From Nitrosococcus oceani ATCC 19707 (GTDB lineage Bacteria; Pseudomonadota; Gammaproteobacteria; Nitrosococcales; Nitrosococcaceae): DNA of 32,000 bases. The position numbers and the translations under genes were made by a program. The DNA is taken from NCBI RefSeq assembly GCF_000012805.1, contig NC_007484.1, forward strand, positions 1,740,001 to 1,772,000. Direction: 5' to 3'. The notes beneath the pieces were generated by a model, which was not told the DNA's origin, searched no databases, and saw nothing but the letters and a program-made list of their open reading frames with translations. Below are positions 1,654 to 28,860 of the stretch, one piece after another (within the stretch, counting starts at the first letter, position 1; each line of letters begins with the position of its first letter).

Positions 1654-1848
1654 ATGGTATATTCGTTAGATGATTTAACTAATCTGTTGATTGGAGATCG
1701 AGCTAGATCGACTGTTTCAATTCTGATTGAGGCTGCCGCTAATGCCCTAGGCTTAATAGGTAATGATCTTCGAGCCCCAAGTAAAAAGATGGACCAATTT
1801 GTTGACTCCTACATAGTCAGTGGACGGGATCTCATAGCATCTGCTTAG
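1654..1848 (+). CDS. Hypothetical small protein (64 aa)
   Basis: ATG-initiated ORF on the cassette strand. There is no recognisable domain. Its stop overlaps a gcTTAGGT motif at 1843-1850. Confidence 0.3.
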   Translation: MVYSLDDLTNLLIGDRARSTVSILIEAAANALGLIGNDLRAPSKKMDQFVDSYIVSGRDLIASA

Positions 1849-2385
1849 GTTGCTAAGGACGAAACAGTGCAAAGAACATTATTAGTTCAGGCGATATCAA
1901 AATTAACACAGGGTGCAGCAGCAACCACTGACCTTTATGCTCAAGCTACTGCTCAATATTTTATTGGTGTGTGCTTTTTTGTTTACGGGAATAGGATAAC
2001 GTAATATTTTGGTTTAAGCGCGCACATGATACTCTCGAAAATCATTTTTATGAACTTGATACTAAGGATAATAATGCTCTACGTACTGAAGAAGTCCTAA
2101 CTCTTGCTGCAGGGTTAGGATTGTACTTGAGGAGTCGGAGGAGGAAACGATCCTTGGAGTATCGTCAATTGGTTGTAAAACTAGTTGTTTCTATTGAAGA
2201 AGTGTTAAGAAATTATGGGGTACAATACAAGCCGTTTAGTAAGTTTGACGCTCTCGATAATCCGGACTCTGGCGGTGATATGCCTGCGCCTTAGCTTTGT
2301 CGAACGGCGAAACGGGGTCAAGCTTGAAAAGTTGAATTGTGAACTGGCTAACGAAGTCAATGCACTCGGACTACTCCCTGCGGTT

Positions 2386-3104: not shown

Positions 3105-3347
3105 ATGAGCAAGGCGAAAATTGCGATCACGATTGATAAACCCATTCTGGCGCGCATTGATAGGCTGGTAGCCAAGCAAGTCTTCTCCAGCCGCAGCCAG
3201 GCTATTGAAGCAGCAGTAGAGGAGAAAATTGAGCGTCTAGCGCACGGGCGACTTGCACGGGAGTGCGCCAAACTCGATCCTGCCTTTGAAAAGGCGTTAG
3301 CTGAAGAAGGGCTCTCCCAGGAGTTGGATGAGTGGCCCGAATATTAA
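3105..3347 (+). CDS. Ribbon-helix-helix (CopG-type) antitoxin partnered with a MazF-family toxin
   Basis: The product reads [40 protein letters not shown].., i.e. beta strand, helix, helix. It overlaps the toxin gene by 16 nt. Confidence 0.8.
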
Positions 3348-5026: not shown

Positions 5027-5164
5027 GATGGAAAGTAGAATCATTATTAGCCTGTTCCCTTATTCCGTAAGAAGAGGCGATCTTGTTTAGTTTTCTCGCT
5101 AGCAGTGCTGGCTGGCTTTGGCGTTTTGCCATGACTGATTGCGGTTCGGTCCCTCCTTACCTTG

Positions 5165-6306
5165 TCAGCCTGGAGAATTCGCGTTTCTCAGCGGTCCTCG
5201 GGCGGTGGCTAGGCCACGGCCCTTGGGGTCTTGACCGCTCCACCTGCCTGCAGCAGGCAGGCGCACTTTAGAGGTTCCGGCGCTCCCCGCCGTACCGAAC
5301 AACACAACATTTTTGGCTGCGTTGATGTCCCTATCGTGGACAGCCCCACATTCACACACCCATTCACGGACTTTGCTGGTGGATGCCCAACGGTCCACGA
5401 TAAAAACATCACGGCCCTACCATTGGGCCTTATATTCAACCTGCCGCCGCAGTTCATACAGGCCACAGTCCGCAATGGCTCTGCTCAGGCGGCGGTTTCT
5501 TAACATTCCTTTGATATTCAAATCCTCCAGGCAAATCACTAGGTTCTCGCTCATCAACCTGTTGGATATTTAGTGCAAAAAATCCCGGCGGCTGTCTTTA
5601 ATCCGGGCATGGATTCGAGCGAGGCGGACTTGTTGCCTGCGCCTCCGCTGAGAGCCTTTCTTCTTGCTAGAGAGTCTGCGCTGCGCCATTCTCAGTTGCC
5701 GGGCATAGCGGTAAGTGTATTTAAGCGCGCCAGACCTCCACCCCTCGGAGGTGATGACCACATCCTTCACGCCGCATCCACACCGAAGGCATTCCTCCGC
5801 GCCAGCAGCCCATTCATCTCCACCTCACAGGCCATGCTGACGAAATAACGGCCCGCAGGGTCTTTATTCACCGTCACCACCTTGGGAATACCGCCTACCT
5901 CGCACGACCATTTCAACTTCAGCGCCCCAAGCTTGGGCAATATCAATCTCGTGCTCTCGGCGTTGAACTTCTTCGCTACATGGCGCTGGTCCAGTTGATA
6001 GCGTACCGATGGGGTGTGGTGGTGGCTTTTAAAGCGATGATAGCGAGCACGGCCAGAAAAGAAGTTCCTGAAAGCCGTGTCCTGTTCTTTGAGCTTTTTA
6101 GGTAGGGCAACCGGCGGTGGCTTCGCTAAAAGCCAAGGGCACGCCGTTTGCTTTAGCGCCGTCAACTGACGGTTCAGGATCGAATAGTTCAGCGACTCTT
6201 TGCTCTCCTTATACGCCTTCGTTCTCGTCTCCAGCGCCCAATTCCACACAAACCGGGCATGGCCGAACTCAATGGCCAATTGCCGCTTCTGCGTAGGCGC
6301 GCTATG
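5165..6306 (-). pseudogene. tnpB: tnpB (IS605 OrfB / RNA-guided nuclease family), inactivated
   Basis: Fragments read PTQKRQLAIEFGHARFVWNWALE..; GVDAA* (a 1-nt deletion in the GVDxGxKD RuvC-I motif near 5767); ..RRDFLH*ISNRLMSENLVICLEDLNIKGM.. (TAA stop, canonical RuvC-II E-D); YKAQW* (TAG); [17 protein letters not shown] (zinc finger and RuvC-III). About the first 10 codons are missing. Confidence 0.85.
5243..5261. repeat. 19-nt perfect palindrome, right-end copy
   Basis: The sequence is cctgcctgc-a-gcaggcagg, identical to the core of the hairpin at 6510-6540. Confidence 0.7.
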
Positions 6307-6347
6307 CTAATATACAACAATTGTAATACAATGGTTAGGTGATCGCA

Positions 6348-6500
6348 ATGGCAAAAGCATTGTTAAATGCGCGCATCGATTCCGCGCTCAAAAAGAAGCT
6401 TCAAACTTTAGCGGAAAGAGAAAACCGAACGCTATCCAATCTCGTCGAGACCGTGCTGGCTACTTACGTGAAACGCGAATTGATGGCAAAACGCAAGTAA
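6348..6500 (+). CDS. Small ribbon-helix-helix (CopG/Arc-like) DNA-binding protein, 50 aa
   Basis: This ORF is not in the supplied track because it is under 60 aa. The ATG at 6348 is preceded by AGGTGA with 6-nt spacing. The product is MAKALLNARIDSALKKKLQTLAERENRTLSNLVETVLATYVKRELMAKRK, with a strand (LNARID) followed by two helices. It is divergent from the tnpB pseudogene across about 41 bp. Confidence 0.6.
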   Translation: MAKALLNARIDSALKKKLQTLAERENRTLSNLVETVLATYVKRELMAKRK

Positions 6501-6509
6501 GGCGGCCCT

Positions 6510-6540
6510 CGCCTCCCTGCCTGCAGCAGGCAGGGAGGCG
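6510..6540. repeat. 31-nt perfect palindrome (left-end hairpin of the element and/or terminator of the RHH gene)
   Basis: The sequence is cgcctccctgcctgc-a-gcaggcagggaggcg, beginning 10 nt after the RHH stop. There is no T-tract afterwards, so it is not a textbook intrinsic terminator. Confidence 0.6.
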
Positions 6541-6560
6541 TCGTACATCCCTGTACTCCT

Positions 6561-7526
6561 TCAATGCCAAAGACCCGTAATATGCCAATGAGGTTTTCTT
6601 CTTACCCGAATAAAATGCGGGGGGAGTTGGAAGGTAGCCTCCCCTAGGCTAGGCACGAAGGAAGCGCTAGCGGGCGGTTTCGGCTTCAACGATAAAAGCC
6701 GTTGTATGCGTTCTTCAGTTCGAGGATGGGTGCGGAGTAATGAGGGCTCTGGGCTATGGCGATCTGGCGTCAGCAGACGTTCCAGCAATCCCCTATGTTG
6801 CCGTTCTAATTTAACTAGCGCTGAGGCAAGACCTTGGGGATCTCCCGTAAGATTAACGGCGCTTAAATCAGCGTCAAATTCGCGAGTTCGGGAGAGGGCG
6901 AGTTGCAGTAACGCGCTGATAGTGGGGGCAAGGATGAGCAGCAGGATGGCAAGCCACGAAAGACTCGTTTTGGTCAACAAAAATAAAGGTAGATTAATCA
7001 CTACTAACAGTTGCCCAAGAAGGGAGAGGGCATGGGTCATGCGACTGGCTAGATCGGCGAGTGTCATGACCCATATATCATTGTTGCGAATATGACCAAT
7101 TTCATGCGCCAGCACTCCCGCCAATTCCCGTAAGGTAAGTTGACGTAATAGGCCATCGGTAATAGCAATGACGGCGTCGGTACGCTTCCCCACTGTAAAT
7201 GCGTTTATAATCTGGCTAGGGATATAATAGAGAACGGGTGTTTGTAATAGGCCAGCCCGTTTTGCTAATTCCTGAGCGAGTGTGTAAAGCTGAGGGGCAT
7301 CGTAGGGTGTTAGACGGCGGCCCCCGTACATGCCAAGGAGCAAGCGGGGTGGGATTTTGGGACCAAGTGCCAGTAGGAATATACCGCTCGCCACAGTCCC
7401 TATCATGAATAGAGGCCCCCCTAAAAACCATCCGGGCATGGCAAGCAATAGAATCATGCCTAGTAACAATAACGCGGACTGGAGCCAATTCGTTATTCTA
7501 TGTTTCAGCAGGTGGTCTGTCTGCAT
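6561..7526 (-). CDS. htpX: M48-family zinc metalloprotease, HtpX-like
   Basis: It has the HEXXH motif in LAHEIGHIRNNDIW, four or more hydrophobic helices and REFDADLSAVNLTGDPQGLASALVKLE. I place the start at the ATG at 7526 (MQTDHLL..). The 54 extra codons in the track ORF lie in an AT-rich promoter-like region. Confidence 0.8.
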   Translation of the reverse strand: MQTDHLLKHRITNWLQSALLLLGMILLLAMPGWFLGGPLFMIGTVASGIFLLALGPKIPPRLLLGMYGGRRLTPYDAPQLYTLAQELAKRAGLLQTPVLYYIPSQIINAFTVGKRTDAVIAITDGLLRQLTLRELAGVLAHEIGHIRNNDIWVMTLADLASRMTHALSLLGQLLVVINLPLFLLTKTSLSWLAILLLILAPTISALLQLALSRTREFDADLSAVNLTGDPQGLASALVKLERQHRGLLERLLTPDRHSPEPSLLRTHPRTEERIQRLLSLKPKPPASASFVPSLGEATFQLPPHFIRVRRKPHWHITGLWH

Positions 7527-24909: not shown

Positions 24910-25037
24910 CGGGGAGTGGGATGTTTTCGGATTAGAGGATTGACAGCCATAAACATCATTGAACATAGTGCTTTCCTAACTAAATGATAGAGACATGATT
25001 AAAAGAAAGATTCACGAATTACCGTTTGGAGTGATTG

Positions 25038-26681
25038 ATGAGTAGTTCCTTGAAAGAATACCTAAGAGAAATGATACATGGAATATACCCGCCTATTTTG
25101 CAAGGAAGTGAGGCTGCGCCATCGCCCCATTCAACGCAACCGTCCCGTGTTGGAGAAGGGGTGATTGATGAATCCACCTTCCAGGTGATAGAAGCGGATA
25201 GGCTTTTCGATGCGATAAATACCGCCCATACAGTGATAGGCCAGGCCGTGCTTTATCGCTCTTTGGCCCAGCCGTTAGCTGACATAAAAATCATCAAGGC
25301 CAAGCAAGAAGCATTACAGGAGCTGGCGTCGAACCCTAGCCTTCGGGAAAAAATAGAATCATTGACAAAAAAAGCTTCTAAACGGGAAAAGTCATTTTAC
25401 CGTTTACTTTTTAGTAAATTTACCGGTTTTTTTGGCAGTTCGAGAGGGGATACTGAAATTGAGGGATATGGCTATGCTACTTATGAAAGGGGAACAACTT
25501 TTATGCTCGAACTGGTTAAGGATGCAAGGACTTTGCCTGCGCCAGAGAGTAATTATCTCAGAATTCTAATTGATGATCTCAAGGGGTTCGGCGCTACTAA
25601 AATTCATTCTTTGATGAAAGGACCCGTTTATTTAACAGAGAGTGGAATTAGGACGAGAGAAGAAAAAAAATGGTTTATTCCTGCTGTAAAATTCAGGCCA
25701 ACTTTGTTTAAACCACTTTTTATACTGGCAGTATTGCTGGGAATTGTTGCGCTCTTTATGTATGGGCCTATGGTGCTGGGTATCTCTTTTTCTTCCTCGC
25801 CCATACTGATACTTTTTCTCCTGCCAGCCCTCATATTTTATATGCCTATGGTGGGTACATTTGACCGTGACAGTTGCATCTATCCTTTGCAGAAACGCTA
25901 CCAAGAATCGGAAGACGTACATACTGCGCTGGAAGCTTTGGGAAAGTTGGATGAATTGCTTGCCTTTCATCATTATGGGAAATCGTTTGGTAGCCCTACA
26001 GTACTGCCACGAGTTATTGCGGCAAAAAATCATACCCTGATACTCAGGGAGGCGAAAAATCCTATCCTGGGTAAGGATAACCCTAATTATGTTCCCAATG
26101 ATATTGACCTGGATGGCCAAAAGCTCACCTTTATTAGCGGTCCCAATAGCGGCGGCAAAACGGCCTTTTGCAAAACAATCGCTCAAATTCAATTGCTCTC
26201 CCAAGTAGGCTGTTATGTGCCCGCGGAAGATGCTGAAATTTCTGTTGCTGATCGTGTTTTTTACCAAGTCCCTGAAATTAGCTCCTTGGAAGATGTAGAA
26301 GGGCGGTTTGGAAAAGAACTTAAGAGAACCAAGGATATGTTTTTAATGACGAGCCCAGAGAGCTTGATAATTTTAGATGAATTATCGGAAGGGACGACTC
26401 ACGCAGAAAAATTGGAGACCTCTTTCCATGTACTCAACGGGTTTTATCGAATAGGAAATAATACGCTTTTAGTGACCCATAACCATGAGCTGGCGGAACG
26501 ATTTAAAGAAAATAAAATAGGTCAGTATTTTCAGGTTCAGTTTATAGGAGAAGGACCCACCTACAAAATTATTGAAGGGATATCAAAAGTAAGCCATGCG
26601 GATAGAGTCGCCAGAAAAATAGGATTTGGGAAGGAAGATATAGAAAGGTATTTAAAGGAAAAGGGGTTTGTTAGCGGGTAG
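25038..26681 (+). CDS. MutS-related ATPase (core domain III-like plus domain V) with two internal transmembrane helices
   Basis: GGAG precedes the ATG at 25038. The product contains ..TVIGQAVLYRSLAQPL-x-D..I..KQEALQEL (MutS domain III entry), two hydrophobic helices (LFILAVLLGIVALFMYGPMVLGI and ILILFLLPALIFYMPMV), Walker A GPNSGGKT, Walker B LIILDELSEGT and LLVTHNHELA. Confidence 0.8.
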   Translation: MSSSLKEYLREMIHGIYPPILQGSEAAPSPHSTQPSRVGEGVIDESTFQVIEADRLFDAINTAHTVIGQAVLYRSLAQPLADIKIIKAKQEALQELASNPSLREKIESLTKKASKREKSFYRLLFSKFTGFFGSSRGDTEIEGYGYATYERGTTFMLELVKDARTLPAPESNYLRILIDDLKGFGATKIHSLMKGPVYLTESGIRTREEKKWFIPAVKFRPTLFKPLFILAVLLGIVALFMYGPMVLGISFSSSPILILFLLPALIFYMPMVGTFDRDSCIYPLQKRYQESEDVHTALEALGKLDELLAFHHYGKSFGSPTVLPRVIAAKNHTLILREAKNPILGKDNPNYVPNDIDLDGQKLTFISGPNSGGKTAFCKTIAQIQLLSQVGCYVPAEDAEISVADRVFYQVPEISSLEDVEGRFGKELKRTKDMFLMTSPESLIILDELSEGTTHAEKLETSFHVLNGFYRIGNNTLLVTHNHELAERFKENKIGQYFQVQFIGEGPTYKIIEGISKVSHADRVARKIGFGKEDIERYLKEKGFVSG

Positions 26682-27416: not shown

Positions 27417-27524
27417 AGATAGTCCCCCCTGTTATATATCGACATAATTGTTGATCCCTATCAAATATAGGCCAAGAAGCCTCTCAGGTCCACGTTTATC
27501 AATCCCCGCCCAAGAGCCCTTCCT

Positions 27525-27686
27525 TCAGGGAGGGGATGTAGGGCGGTTCTGTTGCTCAATGTCGCGCTTAATTAAATCCTTGATGTACTCGGCAAGCGAA
27601 ATGCCCTTCTTTTCAGCTTCTCGTTGCGCCGATTCTTTGAGCCATTTTGGGAGCACCATTTCATATCTAATTTGGTTTGCCATCAT
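27525..27686 (-). CDS. Small ribbon-helix-helix (CopG-like) DNA-binding protein, 53 aa
   Basis: This ORF is not in the supplied track. It lies antisense to the spurious N-terminal extension of ORF 27448. The product is MMANQIRYEMVLPKWLKESAQREAEKKGISLAEYIKDLIKRDIEQQNRPTSPP, a strand (YEMVLP) plus two helices. A strong minus-strand promoter (TTGACT-N17-TAATAT) lies upstream. There is no obvious Shine-Dalgarno sequence. Confidence 0.6.
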   Translation of the reverse strand: MMANQIRYEMVLPKWLKESAQREAEKKGISLAEYIKDLIKRDIEQQNRPTSPP

Positions 27687-27693
27687 CGTGCGC

Positions 27694-27746
27694 TTGATTT
27701 ACGTAAAATATTACGTAATATTAGCACCTATGAGCACGGTAGTCAA
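27694..27746. promoter_or_regulatory. Face-to-face divergent promoters with tandem TTACGTAA palindromes (candidate RHH operator)
   Basis: On the + strand, TTGATT (27694-27699)-N16-TAATAT (27716-27721) ends 8 nt before the tnpB ATG. On the - strand, TTGACT (27746-27741)-N17-TAATAT (27723-27718). TTACGTAA occurs at 27699-27706 and 27711-27718, with centres 12 bp apart. Confidence 0.4.
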
Positions 27747-28821
27747 AACACTCAAAGTCCGCGTCAAAGACAATAAAGCCAACGCCTTAAACCGCATGGC
27801 TTTTGAGGTCAATCAGGTCTGGAATAACGCCAACGAAATAACGGCGGAGTACTCCAGTGTGCCTATGCCTGGGTTTGGCTATCTGCGTAGTAACTTCTCC
27901 GCCTACGATCTGCACCCCTTTCAGAAAAGATACCGAAAAGAGCGCGGACTTAATATTACGGCCCAAACGGTGCAGGAAGTGACTGAGGCCCACGCCAAAG
28001 CCCGTAGACAGTTCAAAAAAGATAAGCTGCGCTGGCGTGTTTCTGGTGGTCCGCGTCGTTCTCTAGGATGGGTGCCTTTCAAAAAGGGCGCGGCTAAATG
28101 GAAAAATGGCTGCCTTTATTTTGCTGGGCACTATTTTAAGGTCTGGGATAGCTACGGACTATCCAAGTACGAGTTCCGCTCCGGTTCTTTCTCTCAAGAT
28201 GCTAGGGGACGCTGGTATTTCAATATTGCCGTTAGCGTCCCTGTGGAGAAAACGACGGCGACCAAAGCAGTAGGTATGGACCTGGGTTTAAAGGATACCG
28301 CCACTTGTAGTAACGGTTTCAAACTGGAAGCGCACCGTTTCTACCGGAATGGAGAAGCGCAACTTGGAAAAGCGCAACGCGCTAACAAGAAAAAACGGGT
28401 AAAGGCTATCCATGCCAAGATCAAAAATAGGCGTTTAGATTCTATTCATAAATTCACAACCCAAGTGGTTCGTGAAAACGCATTTATCGTTGTGGGTAAT
28501 CTCAGCAGTTCCGGCCTTGCTAAAACCAAAATGGCCAAATCTGTTTTGGATGCAGGCTGGTTCATGCTGAAAACGATGATTGAGTACAAGTCCAAAAGGA
28601 CGCAATCGGAGTTCATAGAAGTCAACGAAGCGTACACTACCCAAGCCTGTTCGTGCTGTGGTTGTATCAGCGGCAGCAGTCCGAGAGGTAGGGCGGGACT
28701 TGGAATAAGAGAATGGTCATGCTCTGAGTGTGGAGCGCATCACGATAGAGACGTGAATGCAGCCATGAACATTCTCGCGGCGGGGCATCGCCGTCTCGCA
28801 GGAGGAATCCCCGTCCTTTAG
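27730..28821 (+). CDS. tnpB: TnpB-family protein (IS605 OrfB / RNA-guided nuclease family), intact ORF, non-canonical RuvC-II motif
   Basis: The ATG at 27730 gives 363 aa: MSTVVKTLKVRVKDNKANALNRMAFEVNQVWNN.. Motifs are RuvC-I VGMDLGLKD (D184), CxxC..CxxC (CSCCG..CSECG) and RuvC-III HDRDVNAAMNIL. The motif that is usually (V/I)-E-D-L reads VVGNL (G256, N257). The C-terminus ..GGIPVL* is typical of this family. Confidence 0.9.
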   Translation: MSTVVKTLKVRVKDNKANALNRMAFEVNQVWNNANEITAEYSSVPMPGFGYLRSNFSAYDLHPFQKRYRKERGLNITAQTVQEVTEAHAKARRQFKKDKLRWRVSGGPRRSLGWVPFKKGAAKWKNGCLYFAGHYFKVWDSYGLSKYEFRSGSFSQDARGRWYFNIAVSVPVEKTTATKAVGMDLGLKDTATCSNGFKLEAHRFYRNGEAQLGKAQRANKKKRVKAIHAKIKNRRLDSIHKFTTQVVRENAFIVVGNLSSSGLAKTKMAKSVLDAGWFMLKTMIEYKSKRTQSEFIEVNEAYTTQACSCCGCISGSSPRGRAGLGIREWSCSECGAHHDRDVNAAMNILAAGHRRLAGGIPVL

Positions 28822-28860
28822 GGCGGGGAGGATGTCAAGAGAAATCTGCCACGTTGCAGG
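28700..28860 (+). ncRNA. Candidate omega (right-end) guide-RNA scaffold of the tnpB element; extent is a guess
   Basis: This is by analogy only: TnpB omega RNAs overlap the 3' end of tnpB and the right end. The hairpin ccccgtcc-ttta-gggcgggg (28809-28828) is present. I could do no covariation or expression test. Confidence 0.25.

Follow-up and report, generated by a model that had tools for sequence, protein, structure and literature searches.

Organization of the two TnpB elements

The window analyzed here is the whole 32,000-nucleotide stretch at positions 1,740,001 to 1,772,000 of the Nitrosococcus oceani ATCC 19707 genome (contig NC_007484.1), and within it we observed two elements, A and B, each combining a tnpB gene or tnpB-like sequence with a small ribbon-helix-helix (RHH) gene. 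Both are tnpA-less, non-autonomous TnpB elements of the IS200/IS605 family (IS605-type) with the RHH gene in the position of tnpA. As the original prediction had it, the small open reading frames (ORFs) are divergent from the tnpB-like sequence, RHH-B (27525-27686, minus strand) across 43 bp and RHH-A (6339/6348-6500, plus strand) across about 34-41 bp. Also as predicted, no Y1 (TnpA) or serine transposase gene was found in the window, the only trace being a 24-codon 3' tnpA remnant at 27504-27575, and because a Y1_Tnp gene is absent we regard both elements as non-autonomous derivatives. The two tnpB sequences do belong to distinct lineages (28.6% identity between TnpB-A and TnpB-B, with a canonical Glu at RuvC-II in A and a Gly in B), although tnpB-A proved to be a pseudogene. 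Relatedness between RHH-A and RHH-B was undetectable (hhalign probability 0.8%), and since the RHH proteins are unrelated and the tnpBs only 28.6% identical, the layout arose independently in the two lineages. A search of the full window against Rfam at gathering thresholds returned zero matches.

Element B was compared with four RHH-bearing loci (L001, L002, L108, L109), a locus of N. halophilus (L083) and a tnpA-bearing metagenome locus (L084), while element A was compared with its N. halophilus homologue (L088) and with a locus of N. oceani C-27 (L087, JPGN01000029.1). The clade of TnpB-B was surveyed in 80 representative genome loci whose TnpB is 56-71% identical to TnpB-B. Within N. oceani itself, TnpB-B is identical (100%) to a protein of strain AFC27, and several assemblies contain contigs 100% identical to the window. 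Judged from its sequence, element B (about 27500-28840) is structurally intact, with a left-end (LE) hairpin, RHH gene, 43-bp promoter/operator region, tnpB, predicted omega-RNA scaffold and right end (RE). Its features are as follows.

27495-27499, plus strand: TTATC, directly outside the left end; putative insertion target and predicted (inferred) TnpB target-adjacent motif (TAM)
27500-27552, plus strand: LE, with an imperfect hairpin at 27506-27546; similarity among copies stops at ~27500
27504-27575, minus strand: retained 3' end of an ancestral Y1 tnpA, which supplies RHH-B residues 38-53 and runs past the stop codon (tblastn)
27525-27686, minus strand: RHH-B, a 53-amino acid Arc/CopG-like RHH gene (fold model, selection, four homologues at 77-88%)
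27694-27746, both directions: divergent promoter and operator region (consensus scan, copy comparison)
27730-28821, plus strand: tnpB-B, intact, 363 amino acids, of an RNA-guided nuclease clade with Gly at RuvC-II (NCBIfam guided_TnpB, 237 bits)
28670-28840, plus strand: putative omega-RNA scaffold and RE, overlapping the tnpB 3' end, with hairpins at 28777-28794 and 28808-28830 and terminating in GGATGTCAAG

TnpB-B also matched OrfB_IS605 and Cas12f1-like_TNB (RuvC-like nuclease and zinc-finger domains). Aligned to ISDra2 TnpB, it has kept the RuvC-I D and the RuvC-III D, the latter within a canonical HDRD, and places a Gly opposite E278. A VGN(V/L) motif was observed at RuvC-II in nearly all of the 120 listed relatives, and such a Gly agrees with the groups that Altae-Tran et al. 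(PMC10691335) call "rearranged RuvC-II". The public annotation gives TnpB-B 412 amino acids (27448-28821), the extra 49 N-terminal residues coming from an upstream start and overlapping RHH-B on the opposite strand; this extension is false.

RHH-B is a conserved gene

The original prediction assigned a clean RHH profile to both small ORFs. This was borne out for RHH-A, which scored above the gathering threshold of an RHH family, while RHH-B gave only below-threshold Pfam matches (HicB, CopG_antitoxin and RHH_5, E 0.01-0.1) and is RHH-like by its fold model. In the AlphaFold2 model of RHH-B (predicted local distance difference test score, pLDDT, 78.7) an extended N-terminus leads into helices at residues 14-27 and 31-46, and the model superposes on Arc/CopG at 0.6-1.5 A over ~36 residues. 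When the model was compared with the PDB using Foldseek, the best matches were nearly all RHH proteins (VapB26, Arc, CopG, NikA, AmrZ), with E > 0.1. Sequence searches of the PDB with RHH-A and RHH-B found nothing significant, and protein searches with the two sequences returned 4 and 3 matches from collections in which small ORFs are under-represented.

The ratio of nonsynonymous to synonymous substitution rates (dN/dS) for RHH-B was 0.055-0.066 against L001 and L002, indicating purifying selection, and for this reason we consider RHH-B a real gene. The notion that the small ORFs are spurious and their adjacency to tnpB coincidental draws on the lack of a significant Pfam match for RHH-B and of any NCBI-sourced entry for it among the database matches. 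It is almost certainly wrong, being refuted by the selection and conservation data: dN/dS is 0.055-0.11 across the two genes, the RHH-B ORF is kept in five element B copies, RHH-A is annotated as CopG family with its Pfam score above threshold, and the fold model supports an RHH fold.

Contigs of three sequencing runs (SRR22137107, SRR22137118 and SRR22137162; L115-L117) match the window at 100% and stop at positions 27690, 27685 and 27682, that is, at the RHH-B start codon, and in one of them an Illumina adapter abuts 27685. If these runs are RNA libraries, the ends at 27682-27690 would be 5' ends of the RHH transcript and the mRNA would be nearly leaderless. A literature search for N. oceani RNA sequencing bearing on these contig ends found nothing usable.

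Ends and copies of element B

Four further copies of element B (L001, L002, L108, L109) have an RHH homologue (77-88% identity) beside the 5' end of tnpB, in agreement with the expectation that other copies would keep the small ORF. In the RHH-bearing copies similarity ends after the hairpin just past the RHH stop codon, and in L001, L002 and L108, all three such copies where this flank is available, the sequence beyond the left end differs from that of the window. The left-end sequence recurs in L083 of N. halophilus and in L084, whose TnpBs are 78% and 75% identical, respectively, and the LE similarity of the window to L001, L002, L108, L083 and L084 breaks off at ~27500 in every case. The pentanucleotide 5' of the left end is TTATC or TTACC in five of six copies (window, L001, L002, L083 and L084, not L108).

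At the other end the copies diverge after GGATGTCAA(G/T), ~19 nt beyond the tnpB stop codon, and most of the 80 related loci also have the GGATGTCAA motif. Common to both hairpins of element B, LE and RE, is AATCCCCGYCC...GGGGA(G)GATGT, which is kept in relatives, and the LE hairpin folds as single-stranded DNA at -12.9 kcal/mol (z = -3.2). RNAalifold on the last 170 nt of 19 sequences gave 33 pairs, nine of them with compensatory changes, a conserved 3' structure that matches what would be expected of an omega-RNA scaffold overlapping the tnpB 3' end. For both elements the mapped ends fall outside the RHH genes and not between RHH and tnpB, as the original prediction required for the RHH gene to be part of the element. 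An empty site was sought through the flanking gene and none was recovered: every contig bearing that gene was N. oceani and also has element B.

A gene of 548 amino acids with MutS_III/MutS_V domains (25035-26681) adjoins element B. Four independent N. oceani assemblies (L111-L114, including the NCBI C-27 draft) break inside tnpB-B at 28388-28396, which suggests a second, partial copy of the tnpB-B 3' part elsewhere in the genome. In the metagenome locus L001 (1-175) the RHH gene and promoter region are fused to the last ~20 tnpB codons (..HDRGINAAKNIL..); this is an internal tnpB deletion with the RHH gene kept.

Replacement of tnpA by the RHH gene

The proposal that the RHH gene occupies the tnpA position turned out to be literal for element B. 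Locus L084, with a TnpB 75% identical to TnpB-B, has a 149-amino acid Y1 tnpA (Pfam Y1_Tnp, E = 9e-41) divergent from tnpB over 46 bp, and residues 124-147 of this TnpA align to window positions 27575-27504 (tblastn, 71% identity, E = 7e-8). The C-termini also match (...LKQYIEQQNRPTSPPWRRG / ...LKQYIEQQNRPTSPPWRRGLWAGEW in L084 TnpA; ...IKRDIEQQNRPTSPP, then stop, in RHH-B), and on the strength of this match and the tblastn alignment the last 16 codons of RHH-B are the tail of tnpA. The tail sits within the left end and had to be retained, while the body of tnpA and its native intergenic promoter were swapped for a cassette of RHH residues 1-37 and a new promoter region. Element B thereby displays the origin of the architecture at nucleotide resolution, in the form of a chimeric RHH with its C-terminus from tnpA. 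In N. halophilus L083 the left end is joined straight to tnpB, with neither RHH nor tnpA.

Among the 80 surveyed loci, a complete or remnant tnpA was observed upstream of tnpB in ~23 (L006 and L012 being among the tnpA-bearing relatives) and an IS607-type serine recombinase in one. Weak tblastn matches of RHH-B beside TnpB relatives were resolved as the common tnpA tail plus left end and were not counted as RHH-B homologues. The recombinase locus (L011, Thiothrix fructosivorans; 1731-2309, minus strand) encodes a TnpB from the TnpB-B clade, 66% identical, whose partner in place of a Y1 TnpA is the IS607-type serine recombinase, which has a MerR-like N-terminus; because of this pairing we consider the partner gene exchangeable in the TnpB-B clade. 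In Allochromatium warmingii (L008; 2290-2421, minus strand) a 43-amino acid ORF with below-threshold RHH_10 and VapB matches terminates in the left-end hairpin. The ORF lies upstream of a tnpB, divergent from it over 77 nt, and the TnpB encoded there has 68% identity to TnpB-B. This ORF may be a third RHH gene in the position of tnpA, unrelated to the other two.

Promoters and a candidate operator

The region between the two genes of element B contains a divergent pair of promoter-like sites. P_RHH, called by a consensus scan, consists of a -35 TTGACT (27746-27741), a 17-nt spacer and a -10 TAATAT (27723-27718), and is kept as TTGAC(T/G)-N17-TAnnnT in the window, L002, L108 and L109. P_tnpB was located by eye, with a -35 TTGATT (27694-27699), a 16-nt spacer and a -10 TAATAT (27716-27721) lying 8 nt before the tnpB ATG, and its -35/-10 pair is kept in the same four sequences. 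Positions 27700-27717 form an 18-bp inverted repeat (TACGTAAAA|TATTACGTA), a candidate operator that is kept in L002, L108 and L109 and is a perfect palindrome in L109 (TACACAATATATTGTGTA). Its half-sites track residue 9 of the RHH beta-strand, being ACGTAAT where this residue is Glu (window, L108) and ACACAAT where it is Gln (L001, L002, L109), and the change to ACACAAT is symmetrical, in both arms. Such covariation would be expected of an RHH operator, and it yields a concrete operator prediction with a natural specificity pair, Glu9/ACGTAAT and Gln9/ACACAAT.

We consider it probable that both RHH genes, each with its own promoter/operator region, replaced the Y1 transposase gene and repress tnpB, the omega RNA and themselves. 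The anatomy of the elements, their ends, the tnpA-to-RHH replacement, the selection on the RHH genes and the conserved promoters and operator are the observed part of this proposal. DNA binding and repression we infer from what Moon et al. (2026) found for Arc in IS605-family elements. In element B, an RHH dimer would bind the inverted repeat, which occupies the spacer between the tnpB promoter hexamers and extends over the beginning of the RHH promoter. This would repress tnpB, together with the omega RNA that derives by processing from the 3' end of its transcript, and would also repress the RHH gene itself (autoregulation). The repressor would then limit tnpB and omega-RNA expression in an element that lost its transposase and that could be mobilized only by TnpA acting in trans. 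A repressor of tnpB and guide RNA fits the conserved divergent promoters, the palindromic operator and the published chromatin immunoprecipitation sequencing (ChIP-seq) and reporter data on Arc.

A role in transposition instead of transcription, whether by binding to LE and RE, by interference with a trans-acting TnpA or by binding to TnpB-omega RNA, appears improbable. RHH proteins recognize double-stranded DNA, while the ends of IS200/IS605 elements function as single-stranded hairpins, and the sole conserved operator-type inverted repeat lies in the promoter region, with none observed at the element ends. The RHH-B ORF does enter the LE hairpin and has a TnpA-derived tail, and an earlier proposal of Arc contact with TnpB-omega RNA is cited by Moon et al., but ChIP-seq of Arc homologues shows the intergenic promoter as the predominant site.

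Element A

Element A has decayed, and its features are given below.

5113-6565, minus strand: element A, a decayed IS200/IS605-type element with RHH-A (block common with N. halophilus L088)
5165-6313, minus strand: tnpB-A pseudogene, at least four ORF fragments with OrfB_IS605, HTH_OrfB and TNB Pfam matches
5243-5261, no strand: second copy of a 19-nt palindrome, CCTGCCTGCAGCAGGCAGG (repeat of 6516-6534), inside the tnpB-A 3'/putative omega-RNA region
6320-6348, minus strand: promoter-like site for tnpB-A, TTGCGA, 17-nt spacer, TACAAT (consensus scan)
6348-6500, plus strand: RHH-A, CopG-family RHH of 50 amino acids (53 from a GTG at 6339), with a Shine-Dalgarno AGGTGA upstream (Pfam RHH_1)
6510-6540, no strand: perfect 31-nt palindrome just past the RHH-A stop codon (z = -5.6), with a 19-nt core CCTGCCTGCAGCAGGCAGG at 6516-6534

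The N. halophilus homologue L088, which sits in different genomic surroundings, aligned by blastn over 1494 nt with 72% identity, and both ends of the alignment set the limits of the element at 5113 and ~6565, with RHH-A inside the conserved block. L088 has thus kept the small ORF, which is intact at 78% identity, while its tnpB is dead through lesions different from those in N. oceani. In the window the tnpB-A start ATG has become ATA, the KFRFYPTP codons near the 5' end have been lost with a 26-nt deletion, the RuvC-I motif has a 1-nt deletion, the frame contains two stop codons and the zinc finger is missing its first CxxC. Metagenome relatives of tnpB-A were only 35-44% identical, and none has an RHH or tnpA gene upstream. 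RHH-A matched Pfam RHH_1 with 23.0 bits (gathering score 20.5), carries a CopG-family annotation in N. oceani and is under purifying selection (dN/dS = 0.11 against N. halophilus). A palindrome, ATTGTA-T-TACAAT (6320-6332), overlaps the tnpB-A promoter-like site, is partly conserved in N. halophilus and is a candidate RHH-A operator.

The two genes had been predicted to lie inside their elements, enclosed by matching hairpins. Both RHH genes do fall in blocks conserved across different contexts, but the homologue in N. halophilus has neither of the 19-nt palindromes seen in element A, the one on the right-end side being a clean 19-nt indel. As the palindromes are gone in N. halophilus and the conserved block extends past them, they were rejected as TnpA-recognized ends; they seem to behave like hairpin modules that are inserted or deleted. 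In N. oceani C-27, locus L087 (2000-3156) has an RHH-A paralogue (87% identical) without an adjoining tnpB, with IS5-like and IS630-like transposase fragments upstream and, at ~3190-3230, a longer related palindrome (CCTGTCTGCGTGCGGACACGCACAGGCAGG) at the spot equivalent to that in element A. A PemK-family toxin gene (about 2350-2670) lies a few kb from element A and is the first gene in loci L089-L091.

Another view is that the RHH genes are passengers or relics, captured by chance when tnpA was lost, and that RHH-A may have a host function only or may not be kept at all. In its favor, few members of the TnpB-B clade carry an RHH gene, both Nitrosococcus species combine an intact RHH-A ORF with a broken tnpB-A, and the paralogue in L087 stands without tnpB. 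Even so, we find this view quite unlikely: both RHH genes are under purifying selection, the RHH came with a matching palindromic promoter region that is predicted to now drive tnpB, and the layout occurs with at least two, possibly three, unrelated RHHs (RHH-A, RHH-B and the L008 ORF). We rejected purifying selection as proof that RHH-A stayed functional once tnpB had decayed; each species acquired its own lesions, and the signal therefore includes a period when the elements were intact and may predate the decay.

Weighing a repressor role

Several points count against repression of tnpB by the RHH proteins. RHH-B reaches no Pfam gathering score, and the Foldseek E-values of its model are non-significant at such short length. 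P_tnpB scores 8/12, under the scan threshold, and so was uncalled by the scan. The covariation between half-site and residue 9 rests on two sequence types and probably reflects one evolutionary split. An RHH neighbor was found in the four close copies, but an RHH-B homologue occurred in none of the 80 surveyed loci, a different RHH-like ORF in only one (L008), and none in N. halophilus L083, making RHH-bearing copies rare. Because tnpB-A is dead, any regulation in element A is vestigial. Finally, elements A and B are likened to Arc elements by layout and fold and not by sequence, and with RHH-A and RHH-B mutually unrelated at most one of them could be a close member of the Arc clade.

The original prediction also offered an addiction module, in which the RHH would be an antitoxin neutralizing the TnpB nuclease by protein-protein contact. 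This found little support and is in our view highly unlikely. RHH antitoxins typically have a C-terminal toxin-binding extension, whereas the RHHs here, at 50-53 amino acids, are essentially the bare DNA-binding fold, and the short tail of RHH-B is a leftover of tnpA. The genes are divergent and do not form an RHH-first co-directional operon, the elements appear mobile (different flanks), and in close relatives (N. halophilus L083, many solo copies) this TnpB occurs unaccompanied by an RHH gene. On the other side, antitoxins (VapB26, RelB/DinJ, BrnA, CopG_antitoxin) are what both RHHs match best in sequence and fold, and a toxin-antitoxin reading was proposed for archaeal RHH/MazE-TnpB pairs by Altae-Tran et al. 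2023 (PMC10691335); the RuvC-III of TnpB-B, however, is the canonical HDRD and not the D-to-H of that archaeal clade. We retain repression of tnpB as the probable role.

A broader idea, which we regard as doubtful, is that TnpB elements have repeatedly evolved in one direction, exchanging tnpA for RHH. After loss of the transposase, a newly arriving RHH gene that brings its operator would be joined in frame to the tnpA tail, which has to stay inside the left end, and would assume control of tnpB and the omega RNA; the outcome would be a repressor-gated, RNA-guided nuclease module tolerated by the host. If this were true, RHH-A, RHH-B and the Allochromatium ORF would be three independent instances, and the step could be a first one toward domesticated TnpB systems, in parallel to the regulators of Cas12k transposons.

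Comparison with known systems

The original prediction took the pairing of RHH with tnpB to be undescribed, and this is not so: it was reported in 2023 and experimentally tested in 2026, and the Nitrosococcus elements are fresh examples. An Arc-like RHH ORF was described in IStrons, together with hundreds of Arc-like homologues adjoining tnpB (Zedaveinyte et al. 2023, doi 10.1101/2023.11.20.567912). Moon, Zedaveinyte, Wiegand and Sternberg (bioRxiv, 28 September 2026, doi 10.64898/2026.09.24.754181) described arc inside IS605-family elements, typically divergent from tnpB, including elements with arc and tnpB only, and gave WP_003367503.1 and WP_094548610.1 as seeds of the Arc clade. In the same study Arc bound the intergenic promoter (ChIP-seq) and repressed the tnpB promoter in a red fluorescent protein reporter assay with protein and site mutants, so that the architecture and the favored mechanism of the original prediction both match a class already in print. 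The current picture of IS605 biology is unchanged by our findings, and the annotation of the locus is corrected in three places (RHH-B without an entry, tnpB-B over-extended by 49 residues and tnpB-A as a pseudogene).

Like elements A and B, the Arc elements have a small RHH gene within their boundaries, divergent from tnpB over a short bidirectional promoter region, with inverted motifs overlapping the promoter hexamers (for A and B on consensus and comparative evidence), and their arc genes are often unannotated, as is RHH-B. The published Arc elements are mostly from Clostridia, often with tnpA co-oriented with and overlapping arc, and some are IStrons, whereas A and B are from a gammaproteobacterial ammonia oxidizer. 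Element B additionally preserves the trace of the exchange itself, the final 16 tnpA codons having stayed in the left end when the RHH cassette took the place of tnpA.

Canonical IS200/IS605 elements (ISDra2, IS608 and, here, L084) resemble element B in the LE and RE hairpins, the tnpB clade (75% identity to L084), the omega-RNA scaffold over the tnpB 3' end and the pentanucleotide 5' of the left end, but they have a transposase gene where element B has an RHH and a different intergenic promoter. The archaeal RHH/MazE-TnpB pairs share with element B a small RHH beside a TnpB with a non-canonical catalytic site; those pairs are co-directional with the RHH/AbrB gene upstream, immobile and altered at RuvC-III (D-to-H), while element B is divergent, apparently mobile and bacterial, with RuvC-III intact and a Gly at RuvC-II. 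CvkR is likewise a transposon-encoded repressor divergent from the gene of a TnpB-derived RNA-guided protein, but it has a MerR-type fold and targets cas12k and tnsB in a Tn7-like element, whereas the RHH elements described here are insertion sequences. With these two elements, the association of Arc-like proteins with TnpB is widened from Clostridia to a marine gammaproteobacterial nitrifier.

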